Shown piece by piece: positions 1-20,088 of a DNA stretch of 24,392 nucleotides. The DNA comes from Actinomycetota bacterium. Its GTDB lineage: Bacteria > Actinomycetota > Actinomycetes > S36-B12. The stretch covers positions 1 through 24,392 of the forward strand of contig WLND01000001.1 in assembly GCA_009726075.1 (NCBI GenBank), written 5' to 3'. The notes beneath the pieces were generated by a model. The model ran no database searches. It was not told the DNA's origin and worked only from the letters and a program-made list of their open reading frames with translations. Positions within the stretch are counted from its first letter, which is position 1. Every line of letters begins with the position of its first letter. Both the position numbers and the translations under genes were made by a program.

Positions 1-724
1 GCAGTACGGTGTTGAGAGTGTCGAAGGCCCCGCCGGGAACGGCGACGGACGGGACCGGGTTGAGCAGGGAGACCGGGTTCGCGGAGGTGCCGATCTGCGG
101 CAGGACGAACGCGACGATGCTCCAGATGCTGATCGGGACCAGCAGGGCCGTTGTCTCCCGGGAGCTGTAGATCCCGCTGGCCATGCCCAGGGTCACGAAC
201 GCGAGCAGCAGGACCCAGGCGACGACGTAGAAGCCGAGGAGTCGAGCCGTGTCGCCCAGGGGCAGCGGCCCGTTGGTGATGAGCGAGATACTCGTCCAGC
301 TGATGATGGCCACGGCGGCCAGGATCATCGCCAGCCACGCCCCGATACCGGCGAGCTTGCCCAGCAGGTACGCGGGGATGCCGATCGGCCGGCTCAGCAC
401 GAGATCGATGGTGCGGGCCTTACGGTCGCGCATCGTCGACGTGACACCGACGACGATCGCCATCAGCGCGCCGATGAGCACGAGGTAGATGACCGTGTTG
501 CGGGCGTAGTAGAGCGCGGACACGTCCGTGAACGGATTCGGCGCAGTCGTCAGCCCGGCTTGAGTGGTCTTCTCCCACACGCTGCTGACGGTGCTGTTCG
601 TCAGCCAGCCGATGAGGCTGGAGACCGACACCATCACAATGAAGACGATCAGCAGCACCAGGGGAAGCCTCTCGCGGCGCAGGGCCACGAGTTCCTGTCG
701 CGCCATCGTGAGGACCGCGGTCAT
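1..724 (-). CDS. ABC transporter permease (ABC-2/NosY-like); 3' end runs off the window
   Basis: ATG at 724 overlaps the ATPase stop (ATGA). Manual translation MTAVLTMARQELVALRRERLPLVLLIVFIVMV...RDRKARTIDLVLSRPI...YLLGKLAG is hydrophobic, has the ABC-2 permease 'L.RP...YLLGK' motif, and showed no stop before base 1. Not in the ORF track. Confidence 0.85.
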   Translation of the reverse strand, partial: MTAVLTMARQELVALRRERLPLVLLIVFIVMVSVSSLIGWLTNSTVSSVWEKTTQAGLTTAPNPFTDVSALYYARNTVIYLVLIGALMAIVVGVTSTMRDRKARTIDLVLSRPIGIPAYLLGKLAGIGAWLAMILAAVAIISWTSISLITNGPLPLGDTARLLGFYVVAWVLLLAFVTLGMASGIYSSRETTALLVPISIWSIVAFVLPQIGTSANPVSLLNPVPSVAVPGGAFDTLNTVL

Positions 725-1458
725 GACGCGGACGCCGAGCGGATGTTGAGGTAGATCTCCTCCAGGGAGTCCTCGCCGGGGAACGCCTCGAGGGTGGCCT
801 CCAGTGACGCCTGGTAGGCCAGTTCCCCCTGACGCAGAATGCCGATGCTGGTGCAGGTCTTCGTCACCTCGGACAGCAGGTGCGTGTTCATGAAGATCGT
901 CATGCCCAGGTCGCGATTCAGCGCGACGATGACGTCCCGCAGCTGGCGCACGCCCTCCGGGTCCAGCCCTGACGTGGGCTCGTCGAGGAACAGCACCGAC
1001 GGCTCGTGCAGGATGGCCTGTGCGATGCCCACCCGTTGGCGCATCCCCTTGCTGAACGATCCGACCCGCTCGTGGTCATGGCCGGTGAAGTCCAAGTACT
1101 CCAGCACGTCCTGGATGCGGGCGTCGGGCCTAGACAAGCCCGACAGCCGCCCGAAGAACCGCAGGTTCTCCAACGTCGAGAGGTTGTCGTAGAACTGGAC
1201 GTTCTCGGGAAGGTAACCGATCATTCGCCGGACCCGGTTCGGGTCGACGGCGACATTGACGCCCGCCACATGGATCTCGCCCGTCGTCGGGGCGAGCAGC
1301 GTGGTCAGGATGTTCACTGTCGTCGTCTTGCCGGCGCCGTTGTGACCCAGCAGACCGAAGATCTCCCCCGTCCCGATCGTCAGGTCGAGGTTCCGCAGCG
1401 CGACATGGTCGCCGTACGACTTCGACAGTGCAGAGGTGTGAATCGCGATGTCAGCCAT
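721..1458 (-). CDS. ABC transporter ATP-binding protein (exporter type)
   Basis: Walker A GHNGAGKT, signature FSKGMRQR, Walker B VLFLDEP, H-loop MNTH. Start moved to ATG 1458 (MADIAI) because the 43-aa upstream extension in the ORF track looks non-coding. Confidence 0.93.
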   Translation of the reverse strand: MADIAIHTSALSKSYGDHVALRNLDLTIGTGEIFGLLGHNGAGKTTTVNILTTLLAPTTGEIHVAGVNVAVDPNRVRRMIGYLPENVQFYDNLSTLENLRFFGRLSGLSRPDARIQDVLEYLDFTGHDHERVGSFSKGMRQRVGIAQAILHEPSVLFLDEPTSGLDPEGVRQLRDVIVALNRDLGMTIFMNTHLLSEVTKTCTSIGILRQGELAYQASLEATLEAFPGEDSLEEIYLNIRSASAS

Positions 1459-1478
1459 GTCCGGAACGGTAGGGACCG

Positions 1479-1570
1479 GATCCTGAGAGTTCCTTGAGAG
1501 CAGATGGGGGCTCTCAGGCTTGCTCCTGCCTGGCCACCGCGGATCGGCTCGTCGGCCCATCCTCAGGATC
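1479..1570 (-). ncRNA. Candidate structured 5' leader RNA (riboswitch-like three-way junction)
   Basis: Minus strand has a 9-bp closing stem GATCCTGAG/CTCAGGATC, two internal hairpins and a purine-rich junction AGGCAGGAGCAAG, ending about 20 nt upstream of the ATPase ATG. Confidence 0.3.
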
Positions 1571-1577
1571 GCCGTCC

Positions 1578-1592
1578 TACCCTTCAAGGGTG
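1578..1592. promoter_or_regulatory. Palindromic operator candidate TACCCTTCAAGGGTG
   Basis: Perfect ACCCTT-C-AAGGGT (1579-1591) between divergent genes; resembles TACCC-Nn-GGGTA CsoR-type sites. Confidence 0.3.
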
Positions 1593-2788: not shown

Positions 2789-3139
2789 CTACGCGTCGAG
2801 CGCTCGCACGATTTCCTCGACGGCTCCACGCACGTGACGTAGCTGTCCTTCGGTGAGCCGCTTCTTGGGAAGGCTCTTGATCTCAATAACTTGACCGCTT
2901 CCCAGGTAGACATCCATGGTTCCGCGAGACCTACGGATGAACCGGTCTGACGGCACCGAGAGCCAGTCGATCAGTGCTGCGTATCGCGGCAGGTCGGGCA
3001 TCGATCCCGCCACGATCCGCTGAAGTGTCGACGGCTCCAGTTCGGCCTCAGCCGCCACCTGACGCCACGACATGGCGCGCTCCTGGCGGGCTTCATCGAG
3101 GGCCTCGACGAAGCCCGTGTGGTCGAACGTCGCTGACAT
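2789..3139 (-). CDS. XRE/Cro-C1 family HTH regulator divergent from tnsA
   Basis: LDEARQERAMSWRQVAAEAELEPSTLQRIVAGSMPDLPRYAALIDWL is a typical HTH_XRE; about 65 bp from the tnsA start. Confidence 0.8.
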   Translation of the reverse strand: MSATFDHTGFVEALDEARQERAMSWRQVAAEAELEPSTLQRIVAGSMPDLPRYAALIDWLSVPSDRFIRRSRGTMDVYLGSGQVIEIKSLPKKRLTEGQLRHVRGAVEEIVRALDA

Positions 3140-3191
3140 AGCCCCACTATCCCGTGGTCGACCGCCTCTTCCCTTGAGCGCTTGCCGTGTG

Positions 3192-3205
3192 TAGCGTAGA
3201 CGCTA
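3192..3205 (+). promoter_or_regulatory. Putative leaderless tnsA promoter -10 (TAGCGT) inside a perfect palindrome
   Basis: TAGCGT-AG-ACGCTA; the TAnnnT box lies 7 nt before ATG 3205. Confidence 0.45.
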
Positions 3206-3936
3206 TGACAATGACGCGTCCACGCAACATTCAGCCTGAAGTCGAACTCGTCATCGATGGGGACAGAAGCAGTCTGCCGCTCTCCTCAATGGCGGCGAGT
3301 CAGCTGCGTGCATGCACTCCCGTTCGCACCTTTCGCTGGCACCGAGGACAACGGCATTTCCCTGGCTGGTACTGGTCCGCGACCGACCGTCGGCACGTCA
3401 TGTACGAAAGTCGTCTTGAACTTGGACGCCTCGTCCTGGCTGACTTCGATCCCACGGTGTGCAGCATCCGCTCGCAGCCGTTCCGCCTGACCTTCACGGA
3501 TCGCGAAGGTCGCCTCAGGCGTCATGTCCCGGACTTCGCCCTGCTCACCGACCGGGGTGGTATTCGCATCGTCAACGTGAAGCCTCGGGCGCGGCTCCTT
3601 GATGACAAAGTGCGGACCGCACTTGAGGACGCGCACGCTGCGCTGGGCACTGCAGGCCTCGCGACGGAGATGTGGTCGGGGGAGGATCCAGTAGCCCACT
3701 CGACCATCGCCTTCCTGTCCGCCTATCGCAACTCTTCCCTCTTCGACGAGGCCGAACTGGGTCGTGCACGAAAGGTGCTCCGTGGCCGCATGTGCGTCGT
3801 CGAGGCGGAGCGACTACTGCTTGATGCCGGAATCACCCAACCACGTCCGATCGTGCTGCACCTGCTCTGGACGCACATGCTCCGCATGGACCTGACGAGA
3901 CCACTCGAACCCGACACCGTTCTGGAGGCAGCATGA
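3205..3936 (+). CDS. tnsA: TnsA-like heteromeric transposase endonuclease subunit (actinobacterial type)
   Basis: GQRHFPGWYWSAT..HVMYESRLE...DFDP.V..I.SQPF...RRHVPDF...VNVKP, a PD-(D/E)xK fold; stop overlaps the tnsB start (ATGA). Start at 3205 or 3211. Confidence 0.9.
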   Translation: MTMTRPRNIQPEVELVIDGDRSSLPLSSMAASQLRACTPVRTFRWHRGQRHFPGWYWSATDRRHVMYESRLELGRLVLADFDPTVCSIRSQPFRLTFTDREGRLRRHVPDFALLTDRGGIRIVNVKPRARLLDDKVRTALEDAHAALGTAGLATEMWSGEDPVAHSTIAFLSAYRNSSLFDEAELGRARKVLRGRMCVVEAERLLLDAGITQPRPIVLHLLWTHMLRMDLTRPLEPDTVLEAA

Positions 3937-5996
3937 CCCCGCACTCGTTCCGGTTGTCTCTCGGGCAGCGCGTCATCTTCGACGGCGACACATGGTCCGT
4001 TGCCTCGCTTGCGGGGAATACGGCTCACCTCACTCGCACGTCAGGCGGCCCACTCGTGATCCGGGTGACCGACCTCCTTGCATCGCCGGGATTCCGCGTC
4101 GCCGATCGTGACGATGCCCCTATCGAGGCTCTAGGTCCGGCGTTCGGCGCTCTCAATCCCGACAGCTACCGGGACATTGTGGAGAGGGAAGGGCACGTCC
4201 TCGAGGTCATCACGGGCTACCGAAAGGGCCAGCCCGAACTTGCCCTGCCCGGTGAGCCCCGACCGGCGTACGCCCCCGGGACCCACGTGTTGGCTCGATA
4301 CGAAGCGAAGGCGGCCGAACTGCAGTTATCCCCTCGAACCGTCCGGCGCATGGTCGAGGGCTACAACGCGAAGGGAGTCTCGTCACTCATAAGCGGTCAT
4401 GCCAACCGGCGGACGTCGCCGACCGGCCGCGTAGATGAGCGATGGATCGAGACCGCGCGCATCGTCCTCTCCGAGCATCACGATGCCTCGCAGCCCACCA
4501 TGCAGCTGATCATCGACAGAACCACCGCCCGTGTGCGGGCTGACCACGGATCCGATGTGAAGATCCCGAGCGTGCCCACGGCGCTTCGCGTCCTGCACGA
4601 GATCACAAAGGGCCAGCAGGCATTCTCCGGCACGAGTGCCAAGCAGAAGCGCAGCATCGCGGGCCGCCCCCAGGCCCCTTACGGTCGGCTTCGCGCGCAA
4701 CGGGTCGGGCAGTACGTCCTGCTCGACACGAGCCCCCTGGACGTGTTCGCTATGGATCCGATCACCCTCCGCTGGGTGGGCCTGCAGCTGACGGTCACAC
4801 TCGACCTCGGCAGTCGATGCATCACCGGGCTGCGTCTGTCCCATGTGTCGGCGAACGCGATTGATGCCGCCCTGGTGCTGTACGAAACGCTCAGCCCAGG
4901 CTCCCGCTCACACACGTCGATGGGGCTGCTTCCATACGGTGGCCTCCCCGATGCAGTCCTTCTTCCCGACGGCGATGAGGCTTCCGACACCGGCCTCCCC
5001 GGGACACAGGTCGACTCCCTCGTCATCGACCACGGGAAGATGTACATGTCCGAGCACCTGCGCGGAGTGTGTGACCGCCTGGGCATCAGCATCCAGCCCG
5101 CCCGCGTGCTCACCTCGACCGACAAGGCGCCCGTCGAACGCCTGTTCCGGACCATTCGTGAGGATCTCCTCGCCGCCCTACCCGGGTACAAGGGACCGGA
5201 CGTGTACAGCCGAGGCAAGAACATCGAAGACACAGCGTTCTACTTCTCCCACGAGCTCGAAGGCCTCATCCGGGACTGGGTCGCCAACCGGTATCACAGG
5301 CGGCCCCATGACGGACTCGCCACACCGGCCGTTCCCGGCCTGACGCTTTCTCCCGCAGAGATGTGGGATGTCCTGGTCGCATCAGGTGGGAGCCTCGTCG
5401 GGCCGCGGAGGCCTGAACTCGTCTACGACTTCCTGCCCGTGGCCTGGCGAACCGTCCAGCACTACGGCGTCGAAGTGAACCGACTGCGCTACGACGGTGA
5501 AGGACTTGAAGGGATTCGGGGAACTAGCAGCCCGTACAGCCACGCCAACGGCAAGTGGCCGCTTCGCTTCGACCCCGACGATGCCAGTCGCGTCTACTTC
5601 CAGCGCCCTGACGACCTCACGTGGCACATACTCCGCTGGGAGCATGCCGTCGACATACCTGCGCCGTTCAGCGTCGAGACGCTTCGCTATGCCCGCGGCT
5701 TGGCAGCCACCGAGAATCGTCACCCCGACGATCGACAGGCGTTGATCGAACTGCTCGAACGGTGGGACGCCGGGCTACTGAGCAACCCCACCGAACGCCG
5801 CGTCGCCCTGCGCATCTCCGAACAGCGTCGCGCCCGCACCGCCGCACTGAAGCTGCAGGATTCCGACGTTGCATCTGAGGACGGAGAAGCGGTCGAGACG
5901 TCCCCCCTGACCCTCGTACGGGACGCCGCAGGCGATGACGACGACGTATCGGAACTGGACGGCGACTACTACTCCGACGCTCTCGAGGTCGGCTGA
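3933..5996 (+). CDS. tnsB: TnsB/TniA-like DDE transposase with Mu-transposase C-terminal domain
   Basis: Catalytic triad LLDTSPLD / VIDHGKMY / KAPVERLF; C-terminal WRTVQHYGVEVNRLRY; acidic tail; 687 aa. Confidence 0.93.
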   Translation: MTPHSFRLSLGQRVIFDGDTWSVASLAGNTAHLTRTSGGPLVIRVTDLLASPGFRVADRDDAPIEALGPAFGALNPDSYRDIVEREGHVLEVITGYRKGQPELALPGEPRPAYAPGTHVLARYEAKAAELQLSPRTVRRMVEGYNAKGVSSLISGHANRRTSPTGRVDERWIETARIVLSEHHDASQPTMQLIIDRTTARVRADHGSDVKIPSVPTALRVLHEITKGQQAFSGTSAKQKRSIAGRPQAPYGRLRAQRVGQYVLLDTSPLDVFAMDPITLRWVGLQLTVTLDLGSRCITGLRLSHVSANAIDAALVLYETLSPGSRSHTSMGLLPYGGLPDAVLLPDGDEASDTGLPGTQVDSLVIDHGKMYMSEHLRGVCDRLGISIQPARVLTSTDKAPVERLFRTIREDLLAALPGYKGPDVYSRGKNIEDTAFYFSHELEGLIRDWVANRYHRRPHDGLATPAVPGLTLSPAEMWDVLVASGGSLVGPRRPELVYDFLPVAWRTVQHYGVEVNRLRYDGEGLEGIRGTSSPYSHANGKWPLRFDPDDASRVYFQRPDDLTWHILRWEHAVDIPAPFSVETLRYARGLAATENRHPDDRQALIELLERWDAGLLSNPTERRVALRISEQRRARTAALKLQDSDVASEDGEAVETSPLTLVRDAAGDDDDVSELDGDYYSDALEVG

Positions 5997-7093
5997 TGAC
6001 CATCCCCACAGCCGAACACACCTACAACCTGTCCCAGTACGAAGGGTGGAAGGCACGGTTCGAGTCCCCGCGTCGATCCCGACCCAGAGACCTGTCATCG
6101 ACCGACCTGGGGGCCCTCAACCGTCGAGACCGGCTTCTGTACGACGACGCCCGAAGCGTGTGGCACGCCAACCTCGGCCCGTACCTGACGCCGGACATCA
6201 AGTACGTGATCGACCAGTTGGACCTGATCGTCCAATCCAACCGCCAAGACGGCGATCGCGTCCGCAGTGCCGCCGTGCTGGACGCGTATCCGGGGCTGGG
6301 CAAGACGACCCTGGTCTGCCACTACGGAGGTCAGTTCCACCGGGATCAACTCGACATGTACGGCACGGCCACGGAGGCCGGTGATGATCGTGTGCCGGTC
6401 GCCTACGTGCGGCTCACGAGCAACACCACCATGCGCAGTCTGAACTCGATGCTCTGCCACTTCTATGCCCATCCCGCAGCGGATCGTGGCAACGCCACCG
6501 TGCTCGGTGCACGAGCGTCGCAGCGAGCGCTGGACTGCGCGACACGGCTCATCATCGTCGATGACGTGCACTTCCTGGACATGAACCGGCGTGACGGCCG
6601 GGAGGTCGCCAATCACTTCAAGTGGCTAGCCAACGAGTTCGCAGCCACTTTCCTGTTCGTAGGTGTTGGAATCACGGAGCGCGGCCTTCTCAGCGAGGGA
6701 CTCTCACCGACGAAAGTCCAGTACGCGCAGACCGCCCGCAGATGGACGAGAACCTCACTCGCGCCCTTCAGCATCGACGATGGGCCTGGGCGCAAGACTT
6801 GGCGAAGCCTCCTGCTTGCCATCGAACGGGACCTCGTTCTAGCCAACAAGTCGCCCGGCATGGTTGCGGATGTCCTCGCCGACTACCTCTACGCCCGCTC
6901 GACTGGCCATTTCGCTTCCTTGATGACCCTCATTGCGCGCGGCTGCCAGCGTGCCGTGAAGACGGGCGCCGAAGCGCTCACCATCAAGCTCCTCGACACC
7001 GTTCCCAACGATCAGGCCTCCGAGAACGCTCGCCGGCAACTCGAGGCGGGAATCCGGGATGGCCGATTGAGCTCGCGCCGCGAGGCCGTGTGA
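5996..7093 (+). CDS. tnsC: TnsC/TniB-like AAA+ ATPase
   Basis: Walker A DAYPGLGKT, Walker B LIIVDDVH; TGATG overlap with tnsB. Confidence 0.92.
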   Translation: MTIPTAEHTYNLSQYEGWKARFESPRRSRPRDLSSTDLGALNRRDRLLYDDARSVWHANLGPYLTPDIKYVIDQLDLIVQSNRQDGDRVRSAAVLDAYPGLGKTTLVCHYGGQFHRDQLDMYGTATEAGDDRVPVAYVRLTSNTTMRSLNSMLCHFYAHPAADRGNATVLGARASQRALDCATRLIIVDDVHFLDMNRRDGREVANHFKWLANEFAATFLFVGVGITERGLLSEGLSPTKVQYAQTARRWTRTSLAPFSIDDGPGRKTWRSLLLAIERDLVLANKSPGMVADVLADYLYARSTGHFASLMTLIARGCQRAVKTGAEALTIKLLDTVPNDQASENARRQLEAGIRDGRLSSRREAV

Positions 7094-9795
7094 GGGAACC
7101 GCGCCGTATCCCGATGCGACTGCCTCCCCTGCCGGGGGAGGCGTTCGAGAGCTGGCTCGTTGCCTACGCTCACCGACTAGACAGCCCCACCTCGGACATC
7201 TTGGCGCAGGCAGGCCTAAGCACGAGCCAGGTGTCCACTGATCCGCGCACTCTTGCGTTGGGTCCCTCTGCCGACACTCTCCAGCGGCTCAGCGACGTAA
7301 CCGGCCACGACTGCTCCGAACTGGAAAGCACATTCGTGCCCCTTCGCCAGTACTCTGCGGGGCTCTCGAAGGTTCGGATCCACGGAACCAGCTTCCTCGG
7401 TGCGCCGATGCGAGCAAGTCGCTTCTGCCCTGAGTGCCTCGACGCCAACGGCGGCAGGTGGATGGCCAGTTGGCGTCTGCCGTGGGTCGTCGCCTGCCCC
7501 ACGCACGGCATCCTGTTGGCGACCCACTGCCCAGATTGCGAGTCCGAGCAGCGACGTCGGCCCATCCTGACGGAAAGCACCCCAAACGACCCCCGGCATT
7601 GCGCCAACCCAGCATCAGGGAGCATCGGTCGCGCCCCCACCCGGTGCGAAGCCGACCTGACTGGGGTGTTCACCCACCCGGCGCCAACGGCGCTGGTGCA
7701 CCTCTCCGAGTCATGGAACGAGTTTCACGCCGTTGGCCGGGTGACGGACCTCCTTCGGCTGGTGGGCGACGTCGCCGTGCTGTCATCAGTCATCGGCACC
7801 TGCGCATCGGCAGGTGAGGCGCTAGCCCATCCCGAGAAGTTCGCGGACGTCCTGGCCCAGGCGGCGGAAGCGGTCCTTGACCCTGAAGGCAGCACCTTCA
7901 CCGAGCTCGCATCGCGGCGAGTCTCACGAAAGGCCCCGGCCCTGCCGGCTGGGTGGACGGGCATCAGCGAGGGCCTCGTCTCTCGAGCCTTGGTCATCCG
8001 CGATCCCTCGATGAGGCCACTCGACCGGATCCGGTGGGCCTCTGCAACTCGCGGACGTCGGCCTTCAGAGGTGAGGTCAGACGCGCTTTCCCGCGAGGGC
8101 AAGGTTCCTGCGTCATTGTGGCCCGAGTGGGCGCTGCTCCTGGCTCCACCTGGACTCGAGTCAGCAGCCGTGTTTCCCGCTGCGGCGGCCGGCTGCATGC
8201 TCCTGCGGGGATCCACGCTTCCGCTCTCCCAACTCATGAAGATGTTGTCCGATGATCCGACTGATTCCCGCAGTGCGGCTCGATCGATCCTCCAGGCCAC
8301 AGCGAACGACCCCGGCGACACGATCCTGCCCACCTTGACGAAGCTGAGTGAGACCTTGGAGGCCGAGCCGCCGCCAATCGACTACGCGAGGCGGAGGCGC
8401 TGGGCCGCTGAGCGTGACGTCTTGAGCAGAAGGGATTGGGTGCGCCTGTGCGAAGGGACGTCCTCAGCACCGGGCGAGGCTCGGAAGTGGCGCTACGCGC
8501 GCCTGCGCGTCTGGGAGACCCTTACGGGCGGAATGGCCCATCAGGCACCCAGCTCCCTGATGGCGGGGATGACCGACCCGCTGTCCGTCTACTACCAGTT
8601 CCTGCGCAACCTCACTCCAGCAGTCCTGCAGGCGCTGACGGCCCACGCGCGCGAAGTGCTCGACGCCTGGGGCCTGGAAGACGAGCCCGTCGAGTGGGTA
8701 CCGTCCTTGAGCATCATCGGTGCGCCATCCGACGTGCTGCCCGGAGTGAGCCGCCAGCAACTCGAAGGCCGTGTACCGATCGGCTCATTAGCCGGCCGCA
8801 GGGCGCTCAGTGACTGCGCCGCTGATGTAGGCCTAGACATCCAGCAGGCGAAGCTGATTGTCCGACTCGGTTGGTTCGCGCCCGAGCCGTCGCCGGGCAG
8901 GCCCGCGCGTACCCGTTTGAGTGAAGCCCAGGTGCGCGACGCGATCGAAGTCCGCGGGCTGACCCTCCGCCAGACCGCCGCCGAACTGGGCGTCGATCGC
9001 AAGACGGTCAGACAGAGGTGTCTCGAACTGGAAATCGACCTACACGCTCCAGGCAGACGTCGTCGGTGGAACGTCGACAAGGAGTGGCTGGCGACTCAGT
9101 ACGTCACCCGAGGTCGGCCACTCCCTGACATCGCTGCCGAAGTCGGTTGCAGCACCGCGAACCTGGCAAGGATTGCCAAGGAACACGGAATCCCGCTGCG
9201 CGGTCGTGGTGGCGCCAGCCATGGCTCCGCGACGGTGACCACCGGTGACCTGCCACCCCTGCTTGCCGCATGCCTGCGTGGGCAGGGAGCCCGAGAACGG
9301 GTGGAGCGATTCCACCAGATCGCAGCCTTTCGATCCTTGAACGAGGCCGCCCAGAGCATTGGACTGCACCAGTCGGCCATCAGCACCCAGTTGAAGAAGC
9401 TCGAGACCGCCGCTGGGGGTCGAATCCTCGAACGGGGCGATCGTCAGCATGCCCCACTCAAGGTCACACCCCTCGGCAGGAAACTGCTCAAGCAAGCGGA
9501 ACAGGAGCTCGGACTTCCGCAGCACCCAATCGTGCGAGCGCCCCTTGCCCCGGCTCTGGGCAGCTTCCGTGGCGCTGAACGGATCGCGAAGCTTGCTTCA
9601 GCGAGCAGGCAAAAGACTCTGCGCGAGGCCGCCGTTGCGGCGGGCGTGACGCCTCAGTCACTTCGCATCTCCTTTCGCGGTCTGGAGAGCGCCTGTGGCC
9701 CTCTGGTCAGCGCGTGGGGGCTGGACGAGGCCTTCCATCTCACGCCACGAGGCCAACTCCTCGTCCGACAGTGGGCTGCGCATCACTCCGCGTGA
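7090..9795 (+). CDS. tniQ: TniQ/TnsD-family target selector, 901 aa, with a C-terminal array of HTH and LysR-like wHTH motifs
   Basis: GTG 7090 overlaps the tnsC stop (GTGA) and is in frame with the 6622 ORF. N-terminus has PLPGEAFESWL and the Zn finger RFCPECL...W...CPTH...CPDC. The C-terminus has repeated HTH motifs. Confidence 0.9.
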   Translation: MREPRRIPMRLPPLPGEAFESWLVAYAHRLDSPTSDILAQAGLSTSQVSTDPRTLALGPSADTLQRLSDVTGHDCSELESTFVPLRQYSAGLSKVRIHGTSFLGAPMRASRFCPECLDANGGRWMASWRLPWVVACPTHGILLATHCPDCESEQRRRPILTESTPNDPRHCANPASGSIGRAPTRCEADLTGVFTHPAPTALVHLSESWNEFHAVGRVTDLLRLVGDVAVLSSVIGTCASAGEALAHPEKFADVLAQAAEAVLDPEGSTFTELASRRVSRKAPALPAGWTGISEGLVSRALVIRDPSMRPLDRIRWASATRGRRPSEVRSDALSREGKVPASLWPEWALLLAPPGLESAAVFPAAAAGCMLLRGSTLPLSQLMKMLSDDPTDSRSAARSILQATANDPGDTILPTLTKLSETLEAEPPPIDYARRRRWAAERDVLSRRDWVRLCEGTSSAPGEARKWRYARLRVWETLTGGMAHQAPSSLMAGMTDPLSVYYQFLRNLTPAVLQALTAHAREVLDAWGLEDEPVEWVPSLSIIGAPSDVLPGVSRQQLEGRVPIGSLAGRRALSDCAADVGLDIQQAKLIVRLGWFAPEPSPGRPARTRLSEAQVRDAIEVRGLTLRQTAAELGVDRKTVRQRCLELEIDLHAPGRRRRWNVDKEWLATQYVTRGRPLPDIAAEVGCSTANLARIAKEHGIPLRGRGGASHGSATVTTGDLPPLLAACLRGQGARERVERFHQIAAFRSLNEAAQSIGLHQSAISTQLKKLETAAGGRILERGDRQHAPLKVTPLGRKLLKQAEQELGLPQHPIVRAPLAPALGSFRGAERIAKLASASRQKTLREAAVAAGVTPQSLRISFRGLESACGPLVSAWGLDEAFHLTPRGQLLVRQWAAHHSA

Positions 9796-9813: not shown

Positions 9814-9915
9814 GTGGCCAACTTCACTGATTGGCGTGGCGGAATGGTGGCCGTCGTGGCCAACTTCACTGATTCTCGCCTCACGGCGGGTGGCCAGAAG
9901 TTCTGATTCCCTACA
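9814..9915 (-). repeat. Transposon end A: three TnsB-type sites plus terminal TGTAGG
   Basis: GTGGCCAACTTCACTGATT at 9814-9832 and 9856-9874 (identical), GTGGCCAGAAGTTCTGATT at 9890-9908; minus strand from 9915 reads TGTAGGGAATCAGAACTTCTGGCCAC. Confidence 0.88.
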
Positions 9916-9919
9916 CCCG

Positions 9920-9965
9920 TGTAGGACGTCAGTAGTTCTGGCCCTTTCTCAGTGAATCTGGCCAG
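9920..9965 (+). repeat. Transposon end B: terminal TGTAGG plus two closely spaced TnsB-type sites
   Basis: TGTAGGACGTCAGTAGTTCTGGCC matches end A in inverted orientation; second site TCTCAGTGAATCTGGCCAG at 9947-9965 (20-bp period). Confidence 0.82.
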
Positions 9966-10030
9966 TTCACGGGTGAAGCAAGTTCCGTCTCCGGCGGAGT
10001 GCTCATGATGTCGGCCTTGGGCACACGACA

Positions 10031-10211
10031 GGTGCCCCGCTGCTCGCGATCTGCGAGCCCTGCCTCCTTGAGCACGTTCAGATGGTGACACCGTCGGTTG
10101 AGACAGGCCCAAAGGCGTGGGGCTCGCAAGTCCATCAGGGCAGCAGGCGCGGGCGGACACTTCAGCCATCGTGAGTTCAACGTCGACCGCCATGCCGTGA
10201 CCAATCTTCAT
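10031..10211 (-). pseudogene. arsR: ArsR/SmtB repressor pseudogene
   Basis: ACCPDGLASP joins directly to TPLGLSQPTVS, so the usual LFKALADP.RL..L...CVCDL segment is missing. A frameshift follows, then HLNVLKEAGLADREQRGT, and the C-terminal wing and helix are lost. Confidence 0.8.
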
Positions 10212-10213
10212 AG

Positions 10214-10267
10214 ATTGACACGCATCAATGTACCCTGCACACTGAGATATCGACAAGCGTCAATGTA
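10214..10267 (+). promoter_or_regulatory. Tandem ArsR-type operators overlapping a sigma-A-like promoter
   Basis: ATTGAC-ACGC-ATCAAT(GTA) at 10214-10232 and ATCGAC-AAGC-GTCAAT(GTA) at 10249-10267; TTGACA (10215) N17 CACACT (10238). Confidence 0.7.
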
Positions 10268-10283
10268 AATCTTGGAGGTTGTC

Positions 10284-10547
10284 GTGTCACGTGTGCAACT
10301 GGCGCCGAACGTCTCGGACTTGGAGGCGTCGATCGCCTTCTCCTCGGCCCTGTTCGGGGTCGAGGCGCAGGCCAGCCGTCTTCGCGATGCCGGCCTTGCA
10401 GCCTTCGACGAGAAGGACATCACCTGCTGCTCTGCACTCCAGGAAATGCCGTGGGTTCACGACCCGCACGGCGCGCCCTGGGAGACCTACACCGTCAAGG
10501 ATGACGCTCCGGCGAATCCTCAGCCGCCCGCATCCGCGTGCTGCTGA
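10284..10547 (+). pseudogene. ArsI/CadI-family VOC protein with internal deletion
   Basis: MSRVQLAPNVSDLEASIAFSSALFGVE jumps to AQASRL..., missing the central PAK..PGYANF...LKLVL...NHLGVE segment; keeps TCC and PWETYTV; GGAGG RBS. Confidence 0.75.
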
Positions 10548-10578
10548 CCACGGCGCCGAGAGCGGAAGGGAACTTGGT

Positions 10579-10998
10579 ATGAGTGACACCCCCGCCGTGC
10601 TGTTCGTGTGCGTGAAGAACGGCGGCAAATCCCAGATGGCCGCCGCCCTGATGCGCCAGGCAGTCGGCGACACGGTCGAGGTTCACTCAGCGGGCACCCA
10701 CCCGGGCACGGCGATCAACGCCGAATCCGCGGCCGCCGTCGCCGAGGTCGGCGCAGACATGAGCGACCAGATCCCCAAGCCAATCGACCCGGCACTGCTG
10801 GCCCGCGTCGACCGGGTCGTCGTAGTCGGGTCCGAAGCCGTCGTCGACCCGCTCCCCGGTATGGCCGGGACCATCGAGACGTGGGAGACCGTCGAGCCGT
10901 CCGTCCACGGGATCGAGGGCGCCGAGCGAATGCGCCTGATCCGAGACGACATTGCCGCCCGCGTCACTGTTCTTGCCACCGAACTCACCGCAATCTGA
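10579..10998 (+). CDS. arsC: Arsenate reductase, LMW-PTP fold, mycothiol/mycoredoxin-dependent type
   Basis: VLFVCVKNGGKSQMAAAL...VHSAGT...AEVGADMS...ERMRLIRD; single Cys and K in place of the P-loop Arg, as in Corynebacterium ArsC1/ArsC2. Confidence 0.85.
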   Translation: MSDTPAVLFVCVKNGGKSQMAAALMRQAVGDTVEVHSAGTHPGTAINAESAAAVAEVGADMSDQIPKPIDPALLARVDRVVVVGSEAVVDPLPGMAGTIETWETVEPSVHGIEGAERMRLIRDDIAARVTVLATELTAI

Positions 10999-11012
10999 AC
11001 CGAGGAGACACT

Positions 11013-11399
11013 ATGACCACCATTCGTGTGTACGAGCCCGCCCTGTGCTGCAACACCGGGGTCTGCGGCCCCGATGTCGACGAGAGCCTGGTGACCTTCA
11101 CCGCCGACCTCGGCGCCCTCAAGGAACTCGGCGTCGACATCGAGCGGCACAACCTCGCCAACGACCCGACCGCGTTCGCCACGGACGACACGGTGCGCGC
11201 GTTCCTCCAGGTCGCCGGCTCTGACGGCCTGCCGCTGACGATCGTCGACGGCGTCACCGTCATGACCGGCAGCTACCCGGCGCGTGAGCAGCTGCTGAAG
11301 TTCGCAGGCGTCGATGCCGAGGTCGTTCCTGCGGGAGTTACCACCCTGACCGTGTCCGAAGAGTCGGGCTCGTGCTGCGGCGGAACAAGCTGCTGCTGA
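11013..11399 (+). CDS. arsD: Arsenite metallochaperone
   Basis: VYEPALCCNTGVCGPDVD (three As-binding Cys), GLPLTIVDG...GSYP, C-terminal CC..CC; GAGGAG RBS. Confidence 0.93.
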   Translation: MTTIRVYEPALCCNTGVCGPDVDESLVTFTADLGALKELGVDIERHNLANDPTAFATDDTVRAFLQVAGSDGLPLTIVDGVTVMTGSYPAREQLLKFAGVDAEVVPAGVTTLTVSEESGSCCGGTSCC

Positions 11400-11401
11400 C
11401 C

Positions 11402-13171
11402 ATGATGCGATTCCTGACGGACCCGCCCCGCTCCCTGTTCTTCACCGGCAAGGGCGGCGTCGGCAAGACGTCGGTCGCCTGCGCCACTGCCGTCACCCTC
11501 GCTGAGCAGGGCAAGCAGGTACTGCTGGTCAGCACCGACCCGGCGTCCAATGTCGGACAGGTCCTCGGCGTCACCATCGGCAACACCATCACGTCGATCC
11601 CCGACGTACCGAGACTGTCCGCTCTGGAAATCGACCCGGAGCAGGCTGCCCACGCCTACCGTGAGCGGATCATCGGGCCGGTTCGCGGGCTGCTGCCGGA
11701 CAAGGAGATCGCCTCCATCACCGAGCAGCTGTCCGGGTCCTGCACGACCGAGGTGGCCTCGTTCAACGAGTTCACCGCCCTGCTTTCCGACGAGACCGTG
11801 TTTGGCCAGTACGACCACGTGCTGTTCGACACCGCCCCGACCGGGCACACGATCCGGCTGCTCCAGCTGCCCGGCTCGTGGACGGACTTCCTCAACGATG
11901 GAAAGGGCGATGCGTCCTGCCTCGGCCCGCTCGCGGGGCTGGACAAGCAGCGCACCGTCTACGCCGACGCTGTCGCGGCGCTCAAGGATCCGACCCGCAC
12001 CCGCCTCGTCCTGGTCACCCGCGCGCAGGCATCTGCCTTGGCCGAGGTTGACCGAACGAACGACGAACTCTCCCAGACCGGGATCCACGCCACGCACCTG
12101 ATCGTCAACGGCGTGCTGCCCGCCGCCGCGGGCGAGGAGGACCTCGCCACCGCAGTTCGTGCCCGCGAGACCTCCGCCCTCGCACGCATGCCCGCCGGGC
12201 TGGCCGGCATGCAGGTCGACGTCATCGAGCTGAAGTCCGCGAACATGATCGGACTGCCCGCGTTGCGACTCCTCCTCGACGGTGACGCCTCTGAACCGGA
12301 TGAACGGGCTACGACCCTGGACGAGGTCGACGTGCCCGCGCACCGCCTCCGCACACTCGTGGACGAGATTGAGCGCGGCGGTCATGGGCTCGTGATGTGC
12401 ATGGGCAAGGGCGGCGTCGGCAAGACCACGATCGCCGCAGCCATCGCCGTCGCTCTGGCCCACCGCGGCCATCAGGTCCACCTGACCACGACGGACCCCG
12501 CCGCCCACGTCGAGGAGACACTGCACGGCACTGTCGACGGCCTCCGGGTCTCGCGCATCGACCCGGTCGAGGCGACCCGCGAGTACCGCGAGCGCATCAT
12601 GTCGACGAAGGGCAAGAACCTCGACGACGCCGGCCGGGCCGCCCTGCATGAGGATCTGCTCTCGCCGTGCACGGAGGAGGTCGCGGTCTTCGGCCAGTTC
12701 TCCCGCGTCATCAGCGCCGCCCGGCACGAGTTCGTCGTCGTCGACACCGCCCCCACCGGCCACACGCTGCTGCTCCTGGACGCCGCCGGCTCCTACCACC
12801 GCGACATCGTTCGGCAGATGGGATCGAACGGCGGATTCCGGACTCCGATGATGATGCTGCAGGACCCGGATCTCACCAAAGTCATCCTCGTGACGCTGCC
12901 GGAGCCGACACCAGTCACCGAGGCGCGCGTGCTTCAGGACGACCTCCAGCGTGCCGGGATCCATCCGTGGGCGTGGGTCGTCAACACGTCCCTGGCCGCG
13001 GCCCAGCCGGAGTCGACATTTCTCAGGCGCAGAGCTGCTGCCGAGGCAGAGCAGATCGCTGTGGTGGAGTCGCTGGCCAGTCGGGTGGCGATCGTTCCGC
13101 TGCTCACTCAGGAGCCGATCGGTGAGAGTCCCCTCGCCGCCATCGTCGCCAGCCCTCTGTCCGTCGCATAG
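11402..13171 (+). CDS. arsA: Arsenical pump-driving ATPase
   Basis: Two GKGGVGKT P-loops, two DTAPTGH motifs, and metal-binding Cys in SGSCTTE, ASCLGP and SPCTEE. Confidence 0.96.
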   Translation: MMRFLTDPPRSLFFTGKGGVGKTSVACATAVTLAEQGKQVLLVSTDPASNVGQVLGVTIGNTITSIPDVPRLSALEIDPEQAAHAYRERIIGPVRGLLPDKEIASITEQLSGSCTTEVASFNEFTALLSDETVFGQYDHVLFDTAPTGHTIRLLQLPGSWTDFLNDGKGDASCLGPLAGLDKQRTVYADAVAALKDPTRTRLVLVTRAQASALAEVDRTNDELSQTGIHATHLIVNGVLPAAAGEEDLATAVRARETSALARMPAGLAGMQVDVIELKSANMIGLPALRLLLDGDASEPDERATTLDEVDVPAHRLRTLVDEIERGGHGLVMCMGKGGVGKTTIAAAIAVALAHRGHQVHLTTTDPAAHVEETLHGTVDGLRVSRIDPVEATREYRERIMSTKGKNLDDAGRAALHEDLLSPCTEEVAVFGQFSRVISAARHEFVVVDTAPTGHTLLLLDAAGSYHRDIVRQMGSNGGFRTPMMMLQDPDLTKVILVTLPEPTPVTEARVLQDDLQRAGIHPWAWVVNTSLAAAQPESTFLRRRAAAEAEQIAVVESLASRVAIVPLLTQEPIGESPLAAIVASPLSVA

Positions 13172-13217
13172 CCACCTGTCCCCTGAGGCCATCCCAGTGC
13201 GGTGGCGGCGCGCGGTG

Positions 13218-13436
13218 TCATATGGAGACGTCCGCCCACGCTGCGCAGCAGCCGTCCGCGGGCGTTTCGGAGGGCTCGCAGAGGGCGGCGAACTCGTCCT
13301 CTGAGGAGTACAGGAAGCGCTCAATCATCTCCTGGCCGAACGTTGCGTCGAAGATGTTCTGAAGCAGCATCGACGACGTCCTCAGGATCAGCTGGTACTC
13401 CAGGCTGATGTCATCACGGCCGCAGTTATCGGCCAC
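13218..13436 (-). pseudogene. Remnant of the N-terminal three-helix domain of an actinobacterial ArsC1'-type reductase
   Basis: DISLEYQLILRTSSMLLQNIFDATFGQEMIERFLYSSEDEFA resembles the DLS.DQQ..L.TAA..L..EF...FG.ETIERFL.SSYDQFA pattern; no catalytic domain follows. Confidence 0.6.
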
Positions 13437-13499
13437 GGGCGTGCCGCTCAGGTGTTGGCGTGGCGGCCGCAGTCGACGCGGGCGGCCAGGTGCTCGACC

Positions 13500-13682
13500 C
13501 GATCGCTGGTGTCGGACAGGCAGTGGTGGCTGTCTGTCGAATACGAGGACGGATCACGCGAACTCTTCGACCGTGAGGCGAGCCTCGACGAGGTCGCCGC
13601 ATTGAGCGCCCATCTCAAGGCACTGTCCGAATGCGCAGGAGCCACGTGCCGAGACGCTGACATCTGGCCCGATCCCACGTGA
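13500..13682 (+). pseudogene. Probable sulfatase C-terminal fragment
   Basis: VEYEDGSRELFD...LSAHLKALSECAGATCR resembles the C-terminus of N-acetylglucosamine-6-sulfatase-like enzymes (YVEY..GERELYD...L..L..C.G..CR); no catalytic N-terminus. Start coordinate approximate. Confidence 0.45.
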
Positions 13683-13793
13683 GCTGCGAACACCAGGCTG
13701 CGAACCATGCGCAATTAGGGATTTGGTGAAGGCACCCGGGCATATGACTGCTCTACGCTACCCGGAATTGGTCGAAGGAGGGATGAGCTAAGA

Positions 13794-15023
13794 ATGACGA
13801 GCACGAGCAACACGTATGTGCGCAGCCCATGGGCGGGCAATGCCGATGAGCAGGAGCGACGCCACTGGGCTGCAGTCGCAGACGACGTTGCGCGCGTCAT
13901 CGCCGTCGATGCCCTGGAGCGCGACAAGCAGAGCACTCGTCCATTCGCGGAGATGCAGCTGCTCCGAGACTCCGGCCTGGCGAACTTCCTGATTCCGACC
14001 GAGTTCGGTGGAAGCGGCGGGCACTGGGAGACGGCCTTCCTCATCACTCGCATCCTGGCCAGGGCTGATGCTTCAGTGGCCCAGATCCTCGGCTACCACT
14101 ACGTGAATCAGGCCTGCGTCGTGTTCTACGGCCCCGATGTCGACGCTCAGGCCAAGTGGCTCAGCAAGAGCGCCGAGGGCCGATTGATGTGGAGTGACTC
14201 CTTCAACCCGGTGAGCCCCGACCTTGAGCTCGTGGCCGACGGCGACAACTACCGGATGACCGGGCTCAAGCGGTTCGCAACTGGCGCATCCGTGGCCGAC
14301 ATCGTCATCGCCGGCGGCATCGCGACGGGCGGCGCCCACGACGGGGAGCTCCTCGTGTTTGCGCTCGACACCCAGCGGGCAGGCATCGAGCATCTCGATG
14401 ATTGGGATCACCTCGGTCAGCGGGCGTCGGCGAGCGGTTCGGTTCGCTACACGGACGTCATCATCACCCCGGACGACATCGTCGGCACCGACACCGGGGA
14501 GCCGTTCTCGGCAGTCGTGACCCCGGGCGTACAACTCCTCTTCGGGAACATCTACCTCGGGATCGCCGAGGGTGCCCTCGAGCAGGCGAAGGAACTCACG
14601 CTTGCGCGGCCCGGCGCCTGGTTTCTGAGCGGGGTGGACCGCTACTCGCAGGATCCGATCACGCACCGGGTGTTCGGCGAGTTGGTCGCCAAGACGGTGG
14701 CGGTCGAGGCACTGGCCGATCGGGTGAACCGATGGTTCGATGATGTCGTGGCTCTCGGTGGCGACACCACCGCCGAGGATCGAGCGCGGATCGAGATCCA
14801 GGTGGCCCAGCTCAAGGTGATCTCGACCGAGGTCGGTCTCGAGGTTGCCAGCAGGGTCTTCGAGGTGACGGGGGCGAGTTCGACGAAGTCGAGCAATGGC
14901 CTCGACGTGTACTGGCGCAATATCCGCACGCACAGCCTCCACGATCCTGTTGACTACAAGAAGGTCGAAGTCGGGGCCAACTTCCTCACGGGAGCCGTCC
15001 AGCCGATCTCGCTCTACACCTAG
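13794..15023 (+). CDS. Acyl-CoA-dehydrogenase-fold flavin monooxygenase (DszC/SfnB-like)
   Basis: DDWDHLGQRASASGSVRY and YWRNIRTHSLHDPVDYK; GGAGG RBS. Confidence 0.85.
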   Translation: MTSTSNTYVRSPWAGNADEQERRHWAAVADDVARVIAVDALERDKQSTRPFAEMQLLRDSGLANFLIPTEFGGSGGHWETAFLITRILARADASVAQILGYHYVNQACVVFYGPDVDAQAKWLSKSAEGRLMWSDSFNPVSPDLELVADGDNYRMTGLKRFATGASVADIVIAGGIATGGAHDGELLVFALDTQRAGIEHLDDWDHLGQRASASGSVRYTDVIITPDDIVGTDTGEPFSAVVTPGVQLLFGNIYLGIAEGALEQAKELTLARPGAWFLSGVDRYSQDPITHRVFGELVAKTVAVEALADRVNRWFDDVVALGGDTTAEDRARIEIQVAQLKVISTEVGLEVASRVFEVTGASSTKSSNGLDVYWRNIRTHSLHDPVDYKKVEVGANFLTGAVQPISLYT

Positions 15024-15031
15024 GAGTTGCA

Positions 15032-16279
15032 GTGACAACCGATTCGACGGAGCCGTCCTTTGCGGCGTTGGCGGCGAAGTACCGTCCGATCTTCGAAAGA
15101 ATCGGTGAGGGATCCCTCCAACGCGAACTCGACCGCACCCTGCCGTTCGAACAGGTCCAGTGGCTCAAGGATGCTGGCTTCACCGGCGTGCGCGTGCCCC
15201 GCGAATTCGGGGGTGACGGTGCCACGCTCCCGCAGTTGTTCGAATTGCTCATGGAGTTGGCGGCCGCAGATCCCCATGTGCCGCAGGCGTTTCGCGGCCA
15301 CATCGCATTCGTCGAAGACCAGCTGTGCCGGCCGGCGGGCACGACCCGCGATGAATGGCTCACCCGCTTCGCCGCCGGAGACATGGTCGGCAATGCCGTC
15401 ACCGAGATCGGCAACGTGGCCCTCGGCGATACCCGCACGCGCCTGGCCGGCGACGGAGACACGCTCACCATCTCCGGGAGCAAGTTCTACACGACCGGGA
15501 GCATCTTCGCGGAGTGGATCGACGCGACGGCCCTGGACTCCCGGGGGGTCGAGGTCGCGGTGCTCGTCTCGACGCGTTCGGACGGCGTCGTCGTGTCTGA
15601 CGACTGGAATGGCTTCGGCCAGCGCCTGACCGGCAGCGGCAATGCCGTGTTCTCGGGTGCACCCGTGCGGGCAGATCACGTGTACGTCTTCAGTGACCGC
15701 TTTCCGTATCAGACGGCGCTGTACCAGCTCGTCCTCGTAGCCGTCCTGGCGGGCATCACTCGCGCATCGGCCAACGAGGCCGTCCACCAGGTTGCGAACA
15801 GGGCGCGAACCTTCAGCCACGGCAACGCGGCCCAAACCCGACACGATCCGCAGGTGCTGGAGAACGTGGGCCGCATCGCCGCCAATGCGGCGGCGGTTGA
15901 GGCGATCACGGTTCGCGCGGCTGGCAGTCTTCAGGCGGCCTTCGAGGCGCGCGGTGCCGACGCGTCGGTGGTGTCCGACTGCAAGCGGGATGCCGAACTG
16001 CGCTGCACCGAAGCGCAGGTCATCGCGACCCGCCTGGCCCTCGAATCAGCAACGGCACTCTTCGAAGGACTCGGCGCCTCGGCCGTCATCGAGACACAGG
16101 CCCTGGACCGCTACTGGCGCAATGCGCGAACGGTGAGTTCGCACAACCCCGTGGCCTTCAAGGCGCGGATCATCGGCGACTGGCTCGTCAACGGCACCGA
16201 ACCCCCCTATGAGTGGGCCATCGGCATTGGCCGCCCGAGCGCCGCTCAGGGAGGGGTGACGCCAGATGTCCGGTCGTGA
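15032..16279 (+). CDS. Second DszC/SfnB-like flavin monooxygenase
   Basis: RVPREFGGDG, GSKFYTTGSIFA, DDWNGFGQRLTGSG, DRYWRNARTVSSHNP; AGGAG RBS. Confidence 0.85.
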   Translation: MTTDSTEPSFAALAAKYRPIFERIGEGSLQRELDRTLPFEQVQWLKDAGFTGVRVPREFGGDGATLPQLFELLMELAAADPHVPQAFRGHIAFVEDQLCRPAGTTRDEWLTRFAAGDMVGNAVTEIGNVALGDTRTRLAGDGDTLTISGSKFYTTGSIFAEWIDATALDSRGVEVAVLVSTRSDGVVVSDDWNGFGQRLTGSGNAVFSGAPVRADHVYVFSDRFPYQTALYQLVLVAVLAGITRASANEAVHQVANRARTFSHGNAAQTRHDPQVLENVGRIAANAAAVEAITVRAAGSLQAAFEARGADASVVSDCKRDAELRCTEAQVIATRLALESATALFEGLGASAVIETQALDRYWRNARTVSSHNPVAFKARIIGDWLVNGTEPPYEWAIGIGRPSAAQGGVTPDVRS

Positions 16280-17627: not shown

Positions 17628-17658
17628 TGGGTGCGGTTTTGAGTGGTGAGGAGCAGCG

Positions 17659-18954: not shown

Positions 18955-19427
18955 CCTGGGCCCCGCCGAGCGCGCGTGACCGTCTGGGGATCCTCACGTC
19001 CTCACGAAGCGTCGCCATCGTCGGAGCGTCGAATAATCCGTCGCGTGCGAGCTATTTCGTCGGCACCTACCTCCTAGCGAGCAGCGACTTCACCGTGTGG
19101 TTCGTGAACCCGCGTGAGGAGACCATCCTCGGGCACGTCGCGTACGGAAGCCTGGCCGATTTGCCCGAGGCACCCGACATCGTCGTGGTCTTCCGGAAGC
19201 CGTCCGACCTGCCGGAGGTGCTGGATGAGGCGCTCGCGTGCAACGCGAAGACCCTCTGGCTCCAACTCGGCATCGAGGACCCGGACATTGCCGAGCGCGC
19301 CAGCGAGGGTGGCCTCAACGTGGTCATGAACCGGTGCATCAAGATCGAGCACGCGCGTTTTCACGGCGGGCTTCACCTGGCTGGTTTCAACACCGGCGTC
19401 ATCAGCTCGCGCCGCAGCCTGGCCTGA
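18951..19427 (+). CDS. CoA-binding protein (YccU-like Rossmann fold)
   Basis: SVAIVGASNNPSRAS, PDIVVVFRKP, LWLQLGI, VVMNRCIKIEH; GTG overlaps the metY stop (GTGA). Confidence 0.88.
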   Translation: MTWAPPSARDRLGILTSSRSVAIVGASNNPSRASYFVGTYLLASSDFTVWFVNPREETILGHVAYGSLADLPEAPDIVVVFRKPSDLPEVLDEALACNAKTLWLQLGIEDPDIAERASEGGLNVVMNRCIKIEHARFHGGLHLAGFNTGVISSRRSLA

Positions 19428-19433
19428 GGAGGC

Positions 19434-20057: not shown

Positions 20058-20088
20058 GCCCCGACCCTATGGGTAGGTGGCGCATCAC

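Follow-up and report, generated by a model that had tools for sequence, protein, structure and literature searches.

A 901-residue TniQ protein with five helix-turn-helix modules as a likely TnsD-type selector of the dnaB 3' end in an Actinomycetota Tn7-like transposon

TniQ and TnsC form a textbook pair, and the characterised selectors of Tn7-like transposons all come, to our knowledge, from Proteobacteria or Cyanobacteria. The window described here is a stretch of 24,392 nucleotides from an Actinomycetota bacterium of the S36-B12 lineage (assembly GCA_009726075.1, contig WLND01000001.1, positions 1 to 24,392 of the forward strand). It carries a tnsA-tnsB-tnsC-tniQ operon whose last gene encodes a TniQ-family protein of 901 residues. 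This protein is very likely a TnsD-type, sequence-specific selector that reads the 3' end of the essential helicase gene dnaB on behalf of a cut-and-paste Tn7-like transposon of Actinomycetota.

The Tn7 attachment (att) site, attTn7, is made up of the last 36 bp of glmS, and insertion takes place 27 bp beyond the binding site (PMC12372198). The window element resembles Tn7 of Escherichia coli in its gene order (tnsA, tnsB, tnsC, selector) and in a selector with a TniQ/zinc-finger core and a C-terminal region built of helix-turn-helix (HTH) units that is predicted to give specificity. As in Tn7, the element targets an essential conserved gene at its 3' coding end, and insertion is oriented, takes place at a fixed distance of some tens of bp, at about the stop codon or beyond it, and leaves a 5-bp duplication. 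Unlike Tn7 TnsD, the protein has 901 rather than about 500 residues, lies outside Pfam family PF15978, and has two LysR-type winged HTHs in its tail; the target is dnaB instead of glmS, and no tnsE partner was seen. A further difference from Tn7 is that the window copy and two relatives carry their cargo between tnsA and the att-side end, which leaves the tns genes next to the far end.

In the TniQ/TnsD continuum surveyed by Faure et al. 2023 (PMC10293859), TnsD-like proteins, including the selectors of type I-B and I-D CRISPR-associated transposons (CASTs), carry several HTH domains in their tails. The 901-residue TniQ fits this description, but unlike CASTs its element has no CRISPR module. 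The architecture is therefore less unusual than a preliminary description of the window had implied. A multi-HTH tail is already known for TnsD, and the present protein is a variant of it with two LysR-type units. The main text of Faure et al. 2023 does not mention Actinobacteria, LysR, or dnaB (PMC10293859), and nothing on a Tn7-like element linked to dnaB was found in the open-access literature. Benler et al. 2021 (PMC8649781) state that an Actinobacteria-dominated "clade 2" of Tn7-like transposons has no experimentally characterised member. That clade shares its host phylum and its genes (tnsA, tnsB, tnsC, and tnsD/tniQ) with the window element, which presumably belongs to it.

Insertion sites at the 3' end of dnaB

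Ten occupied sites were compared, namely those of the window's genome (G000), of genomes G294, G337, G669, G1114, G1049, G901, and G251, and of Tsukamurella tyrosinosolvens and Mycolicibacterium alvei. At all ten, the right end, on the tnsA side, lies -6 to +14 bp from the dnaB stop codon, and the orientation is always the same. Gathering homologues and mapping the ends and flanks of their elements had been proposed alongside the preliminary description as a route to a conserved att gene. The gene reached in this way is dnaB.

Three elements have both ends on one contig. The G294 element spans 23,129 bp, has its right end 12 bp past the dnaB stop, and is flanked by the duplication GCGCT. The G337 element spans 22,506 bp, begins 9 bp past the stop, and is flanked by GGCTG. 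Its layout of XRE-type gene, tnsABCQ, and left end is that of the window, and its TniQ also has 901 residues (40% identity). The G669 element spans 20,248 bp and comes from another class-level lineage, whose DnaB is only 43% identical; its duplication, TTCGG, falls inside the last two dnaB codons. The 5-bp duplications are perfect in these three elements and in the window element, where the sequence is CCCGT. Right ends are also found behind dnaB in G1114, G1049, G901, and the same-genus genome G251. In T. tyrosinosolvens (NZ_LR134456.1), the right end is downstream of rpsF-ssb-rpsR-dnaB, and on plasmid pJCM12272 of M. alvei (NZ_AP022566.1), the element sits 7 bp behind a plasmid-borne dnaB.

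The left (tniQ-side) end of the window element occupies positions 9814-9915 of the forward strand, 19-120 bp past tniQ. It contains three direct 19-nt TnsB-type sites (9814-9832, 9856-9874, and 9890-9908), and its terminus, ...CCCTACA, stops at 9915. The 19-mer is present twice exactly, compared with 0.01 occurrences expected by chance, and the third copy in the left end has diverged. A metagenome relative, L010, has a three-site left end after tniQ with spacings of 42 and 34 that also ends in CCCTACA. In G337, three sites follow tniQ and end in ...TTCCTACA.

The target-site duplication CCCGT follows at 9916-9920. The same 5 nt are found directly before a right end on contig C10 of the same genome, which was located by searching the assembly with the end sequence. 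There, the dnaB stop codon TAG is followed by GCG, CCCGT, and the right end TGTAGGGAATCAAAACTTCTGGCCA with two further sites, which places the right end 8 bp past the stop. The ends in the window and on C10 would thus belong to one element of at least 11 kb, inserted behind dnaB with a 5-bp duplication. This assignment across two contigs rests on the shared 5 bp and on identity at 24 of the 26 terminal nucleotides of the two termini. The element has the hallmarks of a Tn7-like transposon: TnsA, TnsB, and TnsC, together with termini of the form TGTAGG... and ...CCTACA that have three sites each.

The distance to dnaB is also constant. Near its 3' end, dnaB encodes a conserved block, (A/T/S)(F/H/S)Q..(H/E)(Y/L).RF, and the first base of this codon block lies 54-63 bp from the element at all ten sites. 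The offsets are 56, 57, 56, 57, 58, 59, 54, and 63 bp in the eight G-numbered genomes, with G1114 at 59, G294 at 63, and G1049 at 54 bp. By manual count, they are 62 and 55 bp in the Tsukamurella and M. alvei records, respectively. A constant offset from a conserved 3' codon block is the geometry of Tn7 TnsD at glmS. The mapped dnaB sites and the 5-bp duplications support the earlier proposal of a protein-only, TnsD-like selector.

An accidental association, in which the region behind dnaB is merely prone to recombination or permissive, is highly improbable. The site is indeed crowded: the window holds the stump of an older end and 12.7 kb of accessory DNA, and same-genus genomes carry other repeats behind dnaB. 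Such a region would not, however, be expected to give ten sites in one orientation whose offset from one codon block stays at 54-63 bp, even between DnaB proteins with identities down to 43%. The occupied sites also include a plasmid dnaB, one insertion inside the last codons, and exact 5-bp duplications.

The complete G337 and G669 elements each have one TniQ-family gene, so the HTH-array protein is the sole candidate of the TniQ family for the selector there. Under a different explanation, the 901-residue TniQ is an adaptor or serves another pathway, and docking at dnaB is directed by another factor encoded on the unassembled part of the element. The window element is incomplete on the dnaB side, and G294 has a second TniQ gene, for a protein of 772 residues, at its dnaB-side end. 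In Tn6022, moreover, TniQ is a hub for a separate selector, TnsF (PMC10293859). The lone TniQ-family genes of G337 and G669 argue against this explanation, as does the size of the protein: adaptor TniQs are small and lack a large C-terminal extension (PMC10293859), whereas the 901-residue TniQ has about 350 residues of HTH modules. The remainder of each element is variable cargo, with an XRE-type gene as the only other shared gene. A separate dnaB-directing factor is therefore quite unlikely. The preliminary description had also reported no cas, tnsE, or second tniQ. None was seen in the window or in its 62%-complete genome, but the element runs off the contig, and a second selector could lie on the missing part.

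In the proposed mechanism of the TnsD-type selector, the N-terminal TniQ/zinc-finger core (residues 2-227) would engage the TnsC ATPase, as in Tn7 and CASTs, while the C-terminal half with its five HTH modules would bind DNA. The site read would span about the last 40 bp of the dnaB coding sequence and might reach as far as 90 bp into it. TnsC would then place the TnsA/TnsB cut at a fixed distance, which would give the landing 54-63 bp from the codon block. The landing point would fall around the dnaB stop with the tnsA-side end facing dnaB, and a 5-bp duplication would leave dnaB intact. We infer that the 901-residue TniQ itself, not another factor, reads dnaB DNA, and likewise which modules read which bases.

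Architecture of the 901-residue TniQ

The selector gene occupies 7090-9795 on the forward strand and is an uninterrupted open reading frame of 901 codons, the fourth and last gene of the tnsA-tnsB-tnsC-tniQ operon. The GTG start codon of tniQ overlaps the stop of tnsC, and homologues keep the residues RRIP preceding Met9; both features support the start at 7090. A database copy of the protein has 893 residues and is called from Met9.

Pfam places the TniQ domain (PF06527) at residues 8-143 (nt 7111-7518, forward strand) with 69 bits against a cut-off of 27 and an E-value of 7.8e-19. This core includes a zinc finger, and Cys113, Cys116, Cys136, His139, Cys147, and Cys150 are invariant in 17 homologues. 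A LysR-type HTH_1 domain (PF00126) is found at residues 739-797 (45.4 bits, cut-off 26.6), and sub-threshold HTH matches lie at residues 620-643 and 667-710. Pfam finds no LysR substrate-binding (effector) domain in the protein. There is also no match to the Pfam TnsD family PF15978 at E-values up to 0.01, which places the protein outside that family. Two relatives reach only 15.7-17 bits for PF15978, where the cut-off is 32.4, in weak matches on the H1-H2 region described below.

The protein was modeled with AlphaFold2 from an alignment of 114 homologous sequences (mean predicted local distance difference test score, pLDDT, 93; predicted template modeling score, pTM, 0.80). The model consists of a TnsD-like core, a helical middle region, and five HTH modules. 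The first, H0 (residues 555-593, nt 8752-8868), is a weak HTH-like unit with helices at 555-559, 573-579, and 584-593. H1 (residues 612-646, nt 8923-9027) and H2 (residues 664-698, nt 9079-9183) are three-helix HTHs. The last two, W1 (residues 734-807, nt 9289-9510) and W2 (residues 828-900, nt 9571-9789), are LysR-type winged HTHs, each with a linker helix. All modules are encoded on the forward strand.

Foldseek with the whole 901-residue model gave no match at E-values up to 0.001, and domain-level VIA alignment was used instead. By structural alignment, the TnsD-like core at residues 2-227 matches Tn7 TnsD in the TnsD-TnsC-DNA complex (8v32_J) with a Z-score of 13.0 and a root-mean-square deviation (rmsd) of 3.5 Å over 187 residues. 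The same residues match several TniQs at Z-scores of 10-12.8, among them 8bd5_Q and 7oxd at 12.6-12.8. Both W1 and W2 can be superposed on the DNA-binding domains of LysR proteins, with Z-scores of 9.5-10.1 and rmsd values of 1.8-2.1 Å over 73-75 residues, linker helix included. By profile, W1 matches LysR domains of the PDB with an E-value of 3.6e-10. W1 and W2 are 25% identical to each other (E = 3e-5 in a single comparison).

The protein thus has an N-terminal TniQ domain with a zinc finger and a large C-terminal HTH extension of five modules (residues 555-900). Its gene is placed directly after tnsB and tnsC within a transposon with multi-site ends. By comparative evidence, it is associated with oriented, fixed-distance insertion and a 5-bp duplication. 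All of these are traits of TniQ/TnsD proteins. W1 gives the HTH_1 match of LysR-type transcriptional regulators, and both W1 and W2 superpose on the DNA-binding domains of CbnR, BenM, and OxyR, the second copy at 828-900 being visible by structure only. Unlike in those regulators, the units are C-terminal, stand in tandem in one chain, and are fused to a transposition protein. Where a LysR regulator has an effector domain after its N-terminal HTH, this chain ends at the W2 linker helix. The protein is not a LysR-type transcriptional regulator.

These results bear out the main structural points of the preliminary description. A 901-residue TniQ with about five HTH modules agrees with the open reading frame, Pfam, and the AlphaFold2 model, and the five peptide motifs quoted for the modules are all present in the translation. 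That the last two modules are LysR-like and lack an effector domain is confirmed by Pfam and by structural alignment.

Variation within the family

A word-indexed protein search found 10 relatives of the 901-residue TniQ and gave the impression of a rare protein. That impression was overturned by an exhaustive search, which returned 2,415 cluster representatives, 370 of them at E-values up to 1e-30 and mostly 700-920 residues long. In genomes the family is sparse: of 390 genomes from the same order, 6 had a member, as did 9 of 401 in the class sample and 3 of 401 in the phylum sample. The named matches are all Actinomycetota and include Streptomyces, Rhodococcus, Mycolicibacterium, and Tsukamurella. 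NCBI labels the family "TniQ family protein", and a fragment of one relative is labeled "LysR family transcriptional regulator".

Nearly all of the 114 aligned representatives have the middle region and the first three HTH units. W1 occurs in 102 of them and W2 in just 25, and a subfamily keeps both down to 33-41% identity. The same variation is seen among the dnaB-docked selectors. Those of G000, G337, and G669 have two LysR units, those of G1049 (813 residues) and M. alvei have one, and those of G1114 (761 residues) and G294 (746 residues) have no HTH_1 match. Since relatives with one LysR module or none also dock at dnaB, the LysR pair is not what selects it. The specificity for dnaB is most likely carried by the shared modules, that is, H0-H2 together with the helical middle region. 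The LysR pair would be accessory, and W1 and W2 may extend the footprint or add affinity. The preliminary description had proposed that the HTH modules read a long att site: an att gene has been found in dnaB, but the LysR pair does not select it, and one long site read by all five modules is something we infer.

The LysR modules may have a different task. In one account, H0-H2 select dnaB while the LysR modules repress the tns operon, bind the element ends for immunity or end pairing, or act as a pseudo-dimer on an operator. This would explain how the three proteins with one HTH_1 match or none (G1114, G294, and G1049) all dock at dnaB at 59, 63, and 54 bp, and why W2 in particular is so often missing; LysR DNA-binding domains also normally act as dimers on operators. 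The account is harder to reconcile with the retention of both modules across a divergent subfamily and with the separate XRE-type candidate regulator already present on the elements. In all three cases with two LysR units, the KHRNG codons of dnaB lie at -92 or -93, which fits a longer footprint and so speaks for a role at the target; this constant distance could, however, simply reflect the absence of insertions and deletions in DnaB. A regulatory or end-binding role for the LysR pair is possible but doubtful.

A further proposal builds on the dnaB-reading selector and is tentative. The dnaB gene is carried by chromosomes, by large actinobacterial plasmids, and by many phages. One selector could serve both Tn7 pathways through chromosomal and plasmid copies of dnaB, giving the element a safe chromosomal site as well as transport on mobile replicons, without a TnsE-like partner. 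In the same proposal, the LysR tandem would be a covalent pseudo-dimer that extends the footprint to the block ~92 bp from the insertion. We know of no description of DNA reading by a tandem LysR pseudo-dimer for TnsD proteins. Taken as a whole, this proposal is rather unlikely.

Several observations weigh against the reading of the 901-residue TniQ as a dnaB selector. The selector role of every family member is a prediction from sequence comparison. The two ends of the window element lie on different contigs of a metagenome-assembled genome. Docking of relatives with one LysR module or none leaves W1 and W2 unexplained by target choice alone. In a 13-sequence tree whose deep branches are poorly supported, the dnaB-docked selectors form no single clade, and target genes have evidently changed within the family. 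Distant members on Streptomyces and Rhodococcus plasmids adjoin no annotated dnaB, and neither does a member in G1120. The dnaB site of G156 is empty though family members sit on another contig of that genome. Finally, G294 carries its second TniQ gene beside the right end.

Individual copies have features of their own. The second TniQ of G294 (L021 1150-3468, G294:C11) is very divergent and lies just inside the dnaB-side end; with its 746-residue, tnsABC-linked TniQ and the 772-residue TniQ, G294 may hold a two-selector element. At G156:C218 (L023 15259-19972), two TniQ-family genes are arranged face to face, and one contains an internal stop; the locus may be another att site with stacked elements. 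The annotation of the M. alvei element (L056 4044-12579) divides tniQ into a "hypothetical protein" and a "LysR family transcriptional regulator" gene, pointing to a frameshift or a mis-call. The T. tyrosinosolvens element (L055 4910-25681) has its tnsB region interrupted by IS21 (istA, istB) and carries mercury (merA, merB) and arsenic resistance as cargo; its record, NZ_LR134456.1, is labeled a plasmid yet holds rpsF-ssb-rpsR-dnaB. In G901:C1 and G1049:C27, dnaB matches in two pieces 0.9-1.1 kb apart within one long open frame, as would be expected for an intein, and the distance between the 3' codon block and the transposon end is nonetheless the usual one.

Gene content of the window and the use of the site

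The first gene of the operon, at 3187-3936 on the forward strand, encodes a TnsA-like endonuclease subunit (PF08722, 28.6 bits, cut-off 26.5). Its orthologues in named genomes are labeled "TnsA-like heteromeric transposase endonuclease subunit" by NCBI. The tnsB gene (3933-5996, forward strand) encodes a transposase of 687 residues that contains a winged HTH and PF09299, the C-terminal domain of Mu transposase. Its identity to the tnsB of related elements is 40-75%; at E-values up to 0.01, Pfam gave no match to rve (DDE) in TnsB. The tnsC gene (5996-7093, forward strand) encodes an AAA+ regulator of 365 residues that matches AAA_22 and TniB (PF05621). Stops and starts overlap along tnsA, tnsB, tnsC, and tniQ.

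Divergent from tnsA, an XRE-type HTH gene for a protein of 116 residues lies at 2789-3139 on the reverse strand and gives weak HTH_3 and HTH_31 matches. It is kept in the same place in L010 (85% identity) and G337 (52%) and is absent from other related elements. It is probably the regulator of the element, a repressor of the tns operon. No TnsB-type end sites were found upstream of tnsA within the window, and similarity to L010 begins only at 2789, with the XRE gene. The cargo would therefore lie upstream of tnsA, and the element runs off the contig. An element consisting of just tnsABCQ was considered and ruled out, as there is no end by tnsA and the partner end is on C10. The probable cargo at 1-2788 reaches the contig edge, beyond which the element would extend to its dnaB-side end on C10. 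By Pfam, it includes an ABC-transporter ATPase gene (721-1587, reverse strand) and a GGDEF diguanylate cyclase gene (1494-2705), both probable cargo.

On the other side of the duplication, an opposed, diverged right-type end of an older resident element lies at 9920-9965 on the forward strand. It begins TGTAGGACG... and has two close sites, 9929-9944 and 9949-9964. The CCCGT duplication includes the first T of this end, and the two ends are 4 bp apart; the newcomer would have cut one base into the terminus of the resident. The site sequence of the resident end is also found in the end that follows dnaB in G251.

Behind this end are 12.7 kb of older accessory DNA (9966-22630) with Pfam matches. 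It carries a low-molecular-weight-phosphatase-type gene together with ArsD and ArsA. It also holds two acyl-CoA-dehydrogenase-like genes and genes for a luciferase-like monooxygenase, a Cys/Met pyridoxal-phosphate (PLP) enzyme, a CoA-binding protein, a TetR protein, and a GH18 chitinase with CBM2. The luciferase-like monooxygenase was not found in five same-genus genomes. No left end of the older element was found in 9966-24392, and this interval has no tns genes and no further end-like sites.

The native chromosomal flank is reached with an alpha/beta hydrolase gene at 22937-24391 on the reverse strand. In four genomes of the genus, the gene immediately downstream of dnaB is this one: window positions 23058-23783 share 68-70% nucleotide identity with DNA ~320-1050 bp behind the dnaB stop in G252, G255, G256, and G257. 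The hydrolase gene directly behind dnaB in these relatives, together with the resident end and the accessory DNA in between, indicates that elements have stacked at the site. The resident itself resembles an earlier insertion in this stack that has since decayed.

At 22640-22918, repeats of 27-29 nt form a cluster. They are both inverted (93% complementary) and direct (90%) and have the core CCGGATTGTGGGCCGGATGAA. In four genomes of the genus, a similar core, CCGGATTCTGGG..GATGAA, follows the dnaB stop at a distance of 35-45 bp. The repeats could form a small non-autonomous element; alternatively, another mobile element that uses the same intergenic region could have its binding sites here.

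The site behind dnaB is a hot spot at which cargo piles up. Arsenic resistance is found there in the window, and related elements carry a restriction-modification system as well as genes for resistance to mercury and arsenic. The actinobacterial clade becomes testable through its defined att site at the dnaB 3' end, its defined ends, and its one modular selector. The selectors with zero, one, and two LysR units at one gene are a natural series and a ready experiment on how HTH modules add up to specificity. Such a system would offer one-copy, orientation-specific integration that spares the essential gene in actinobacteria such as Streptomyces, Rhodococcus, and mycobacteria.

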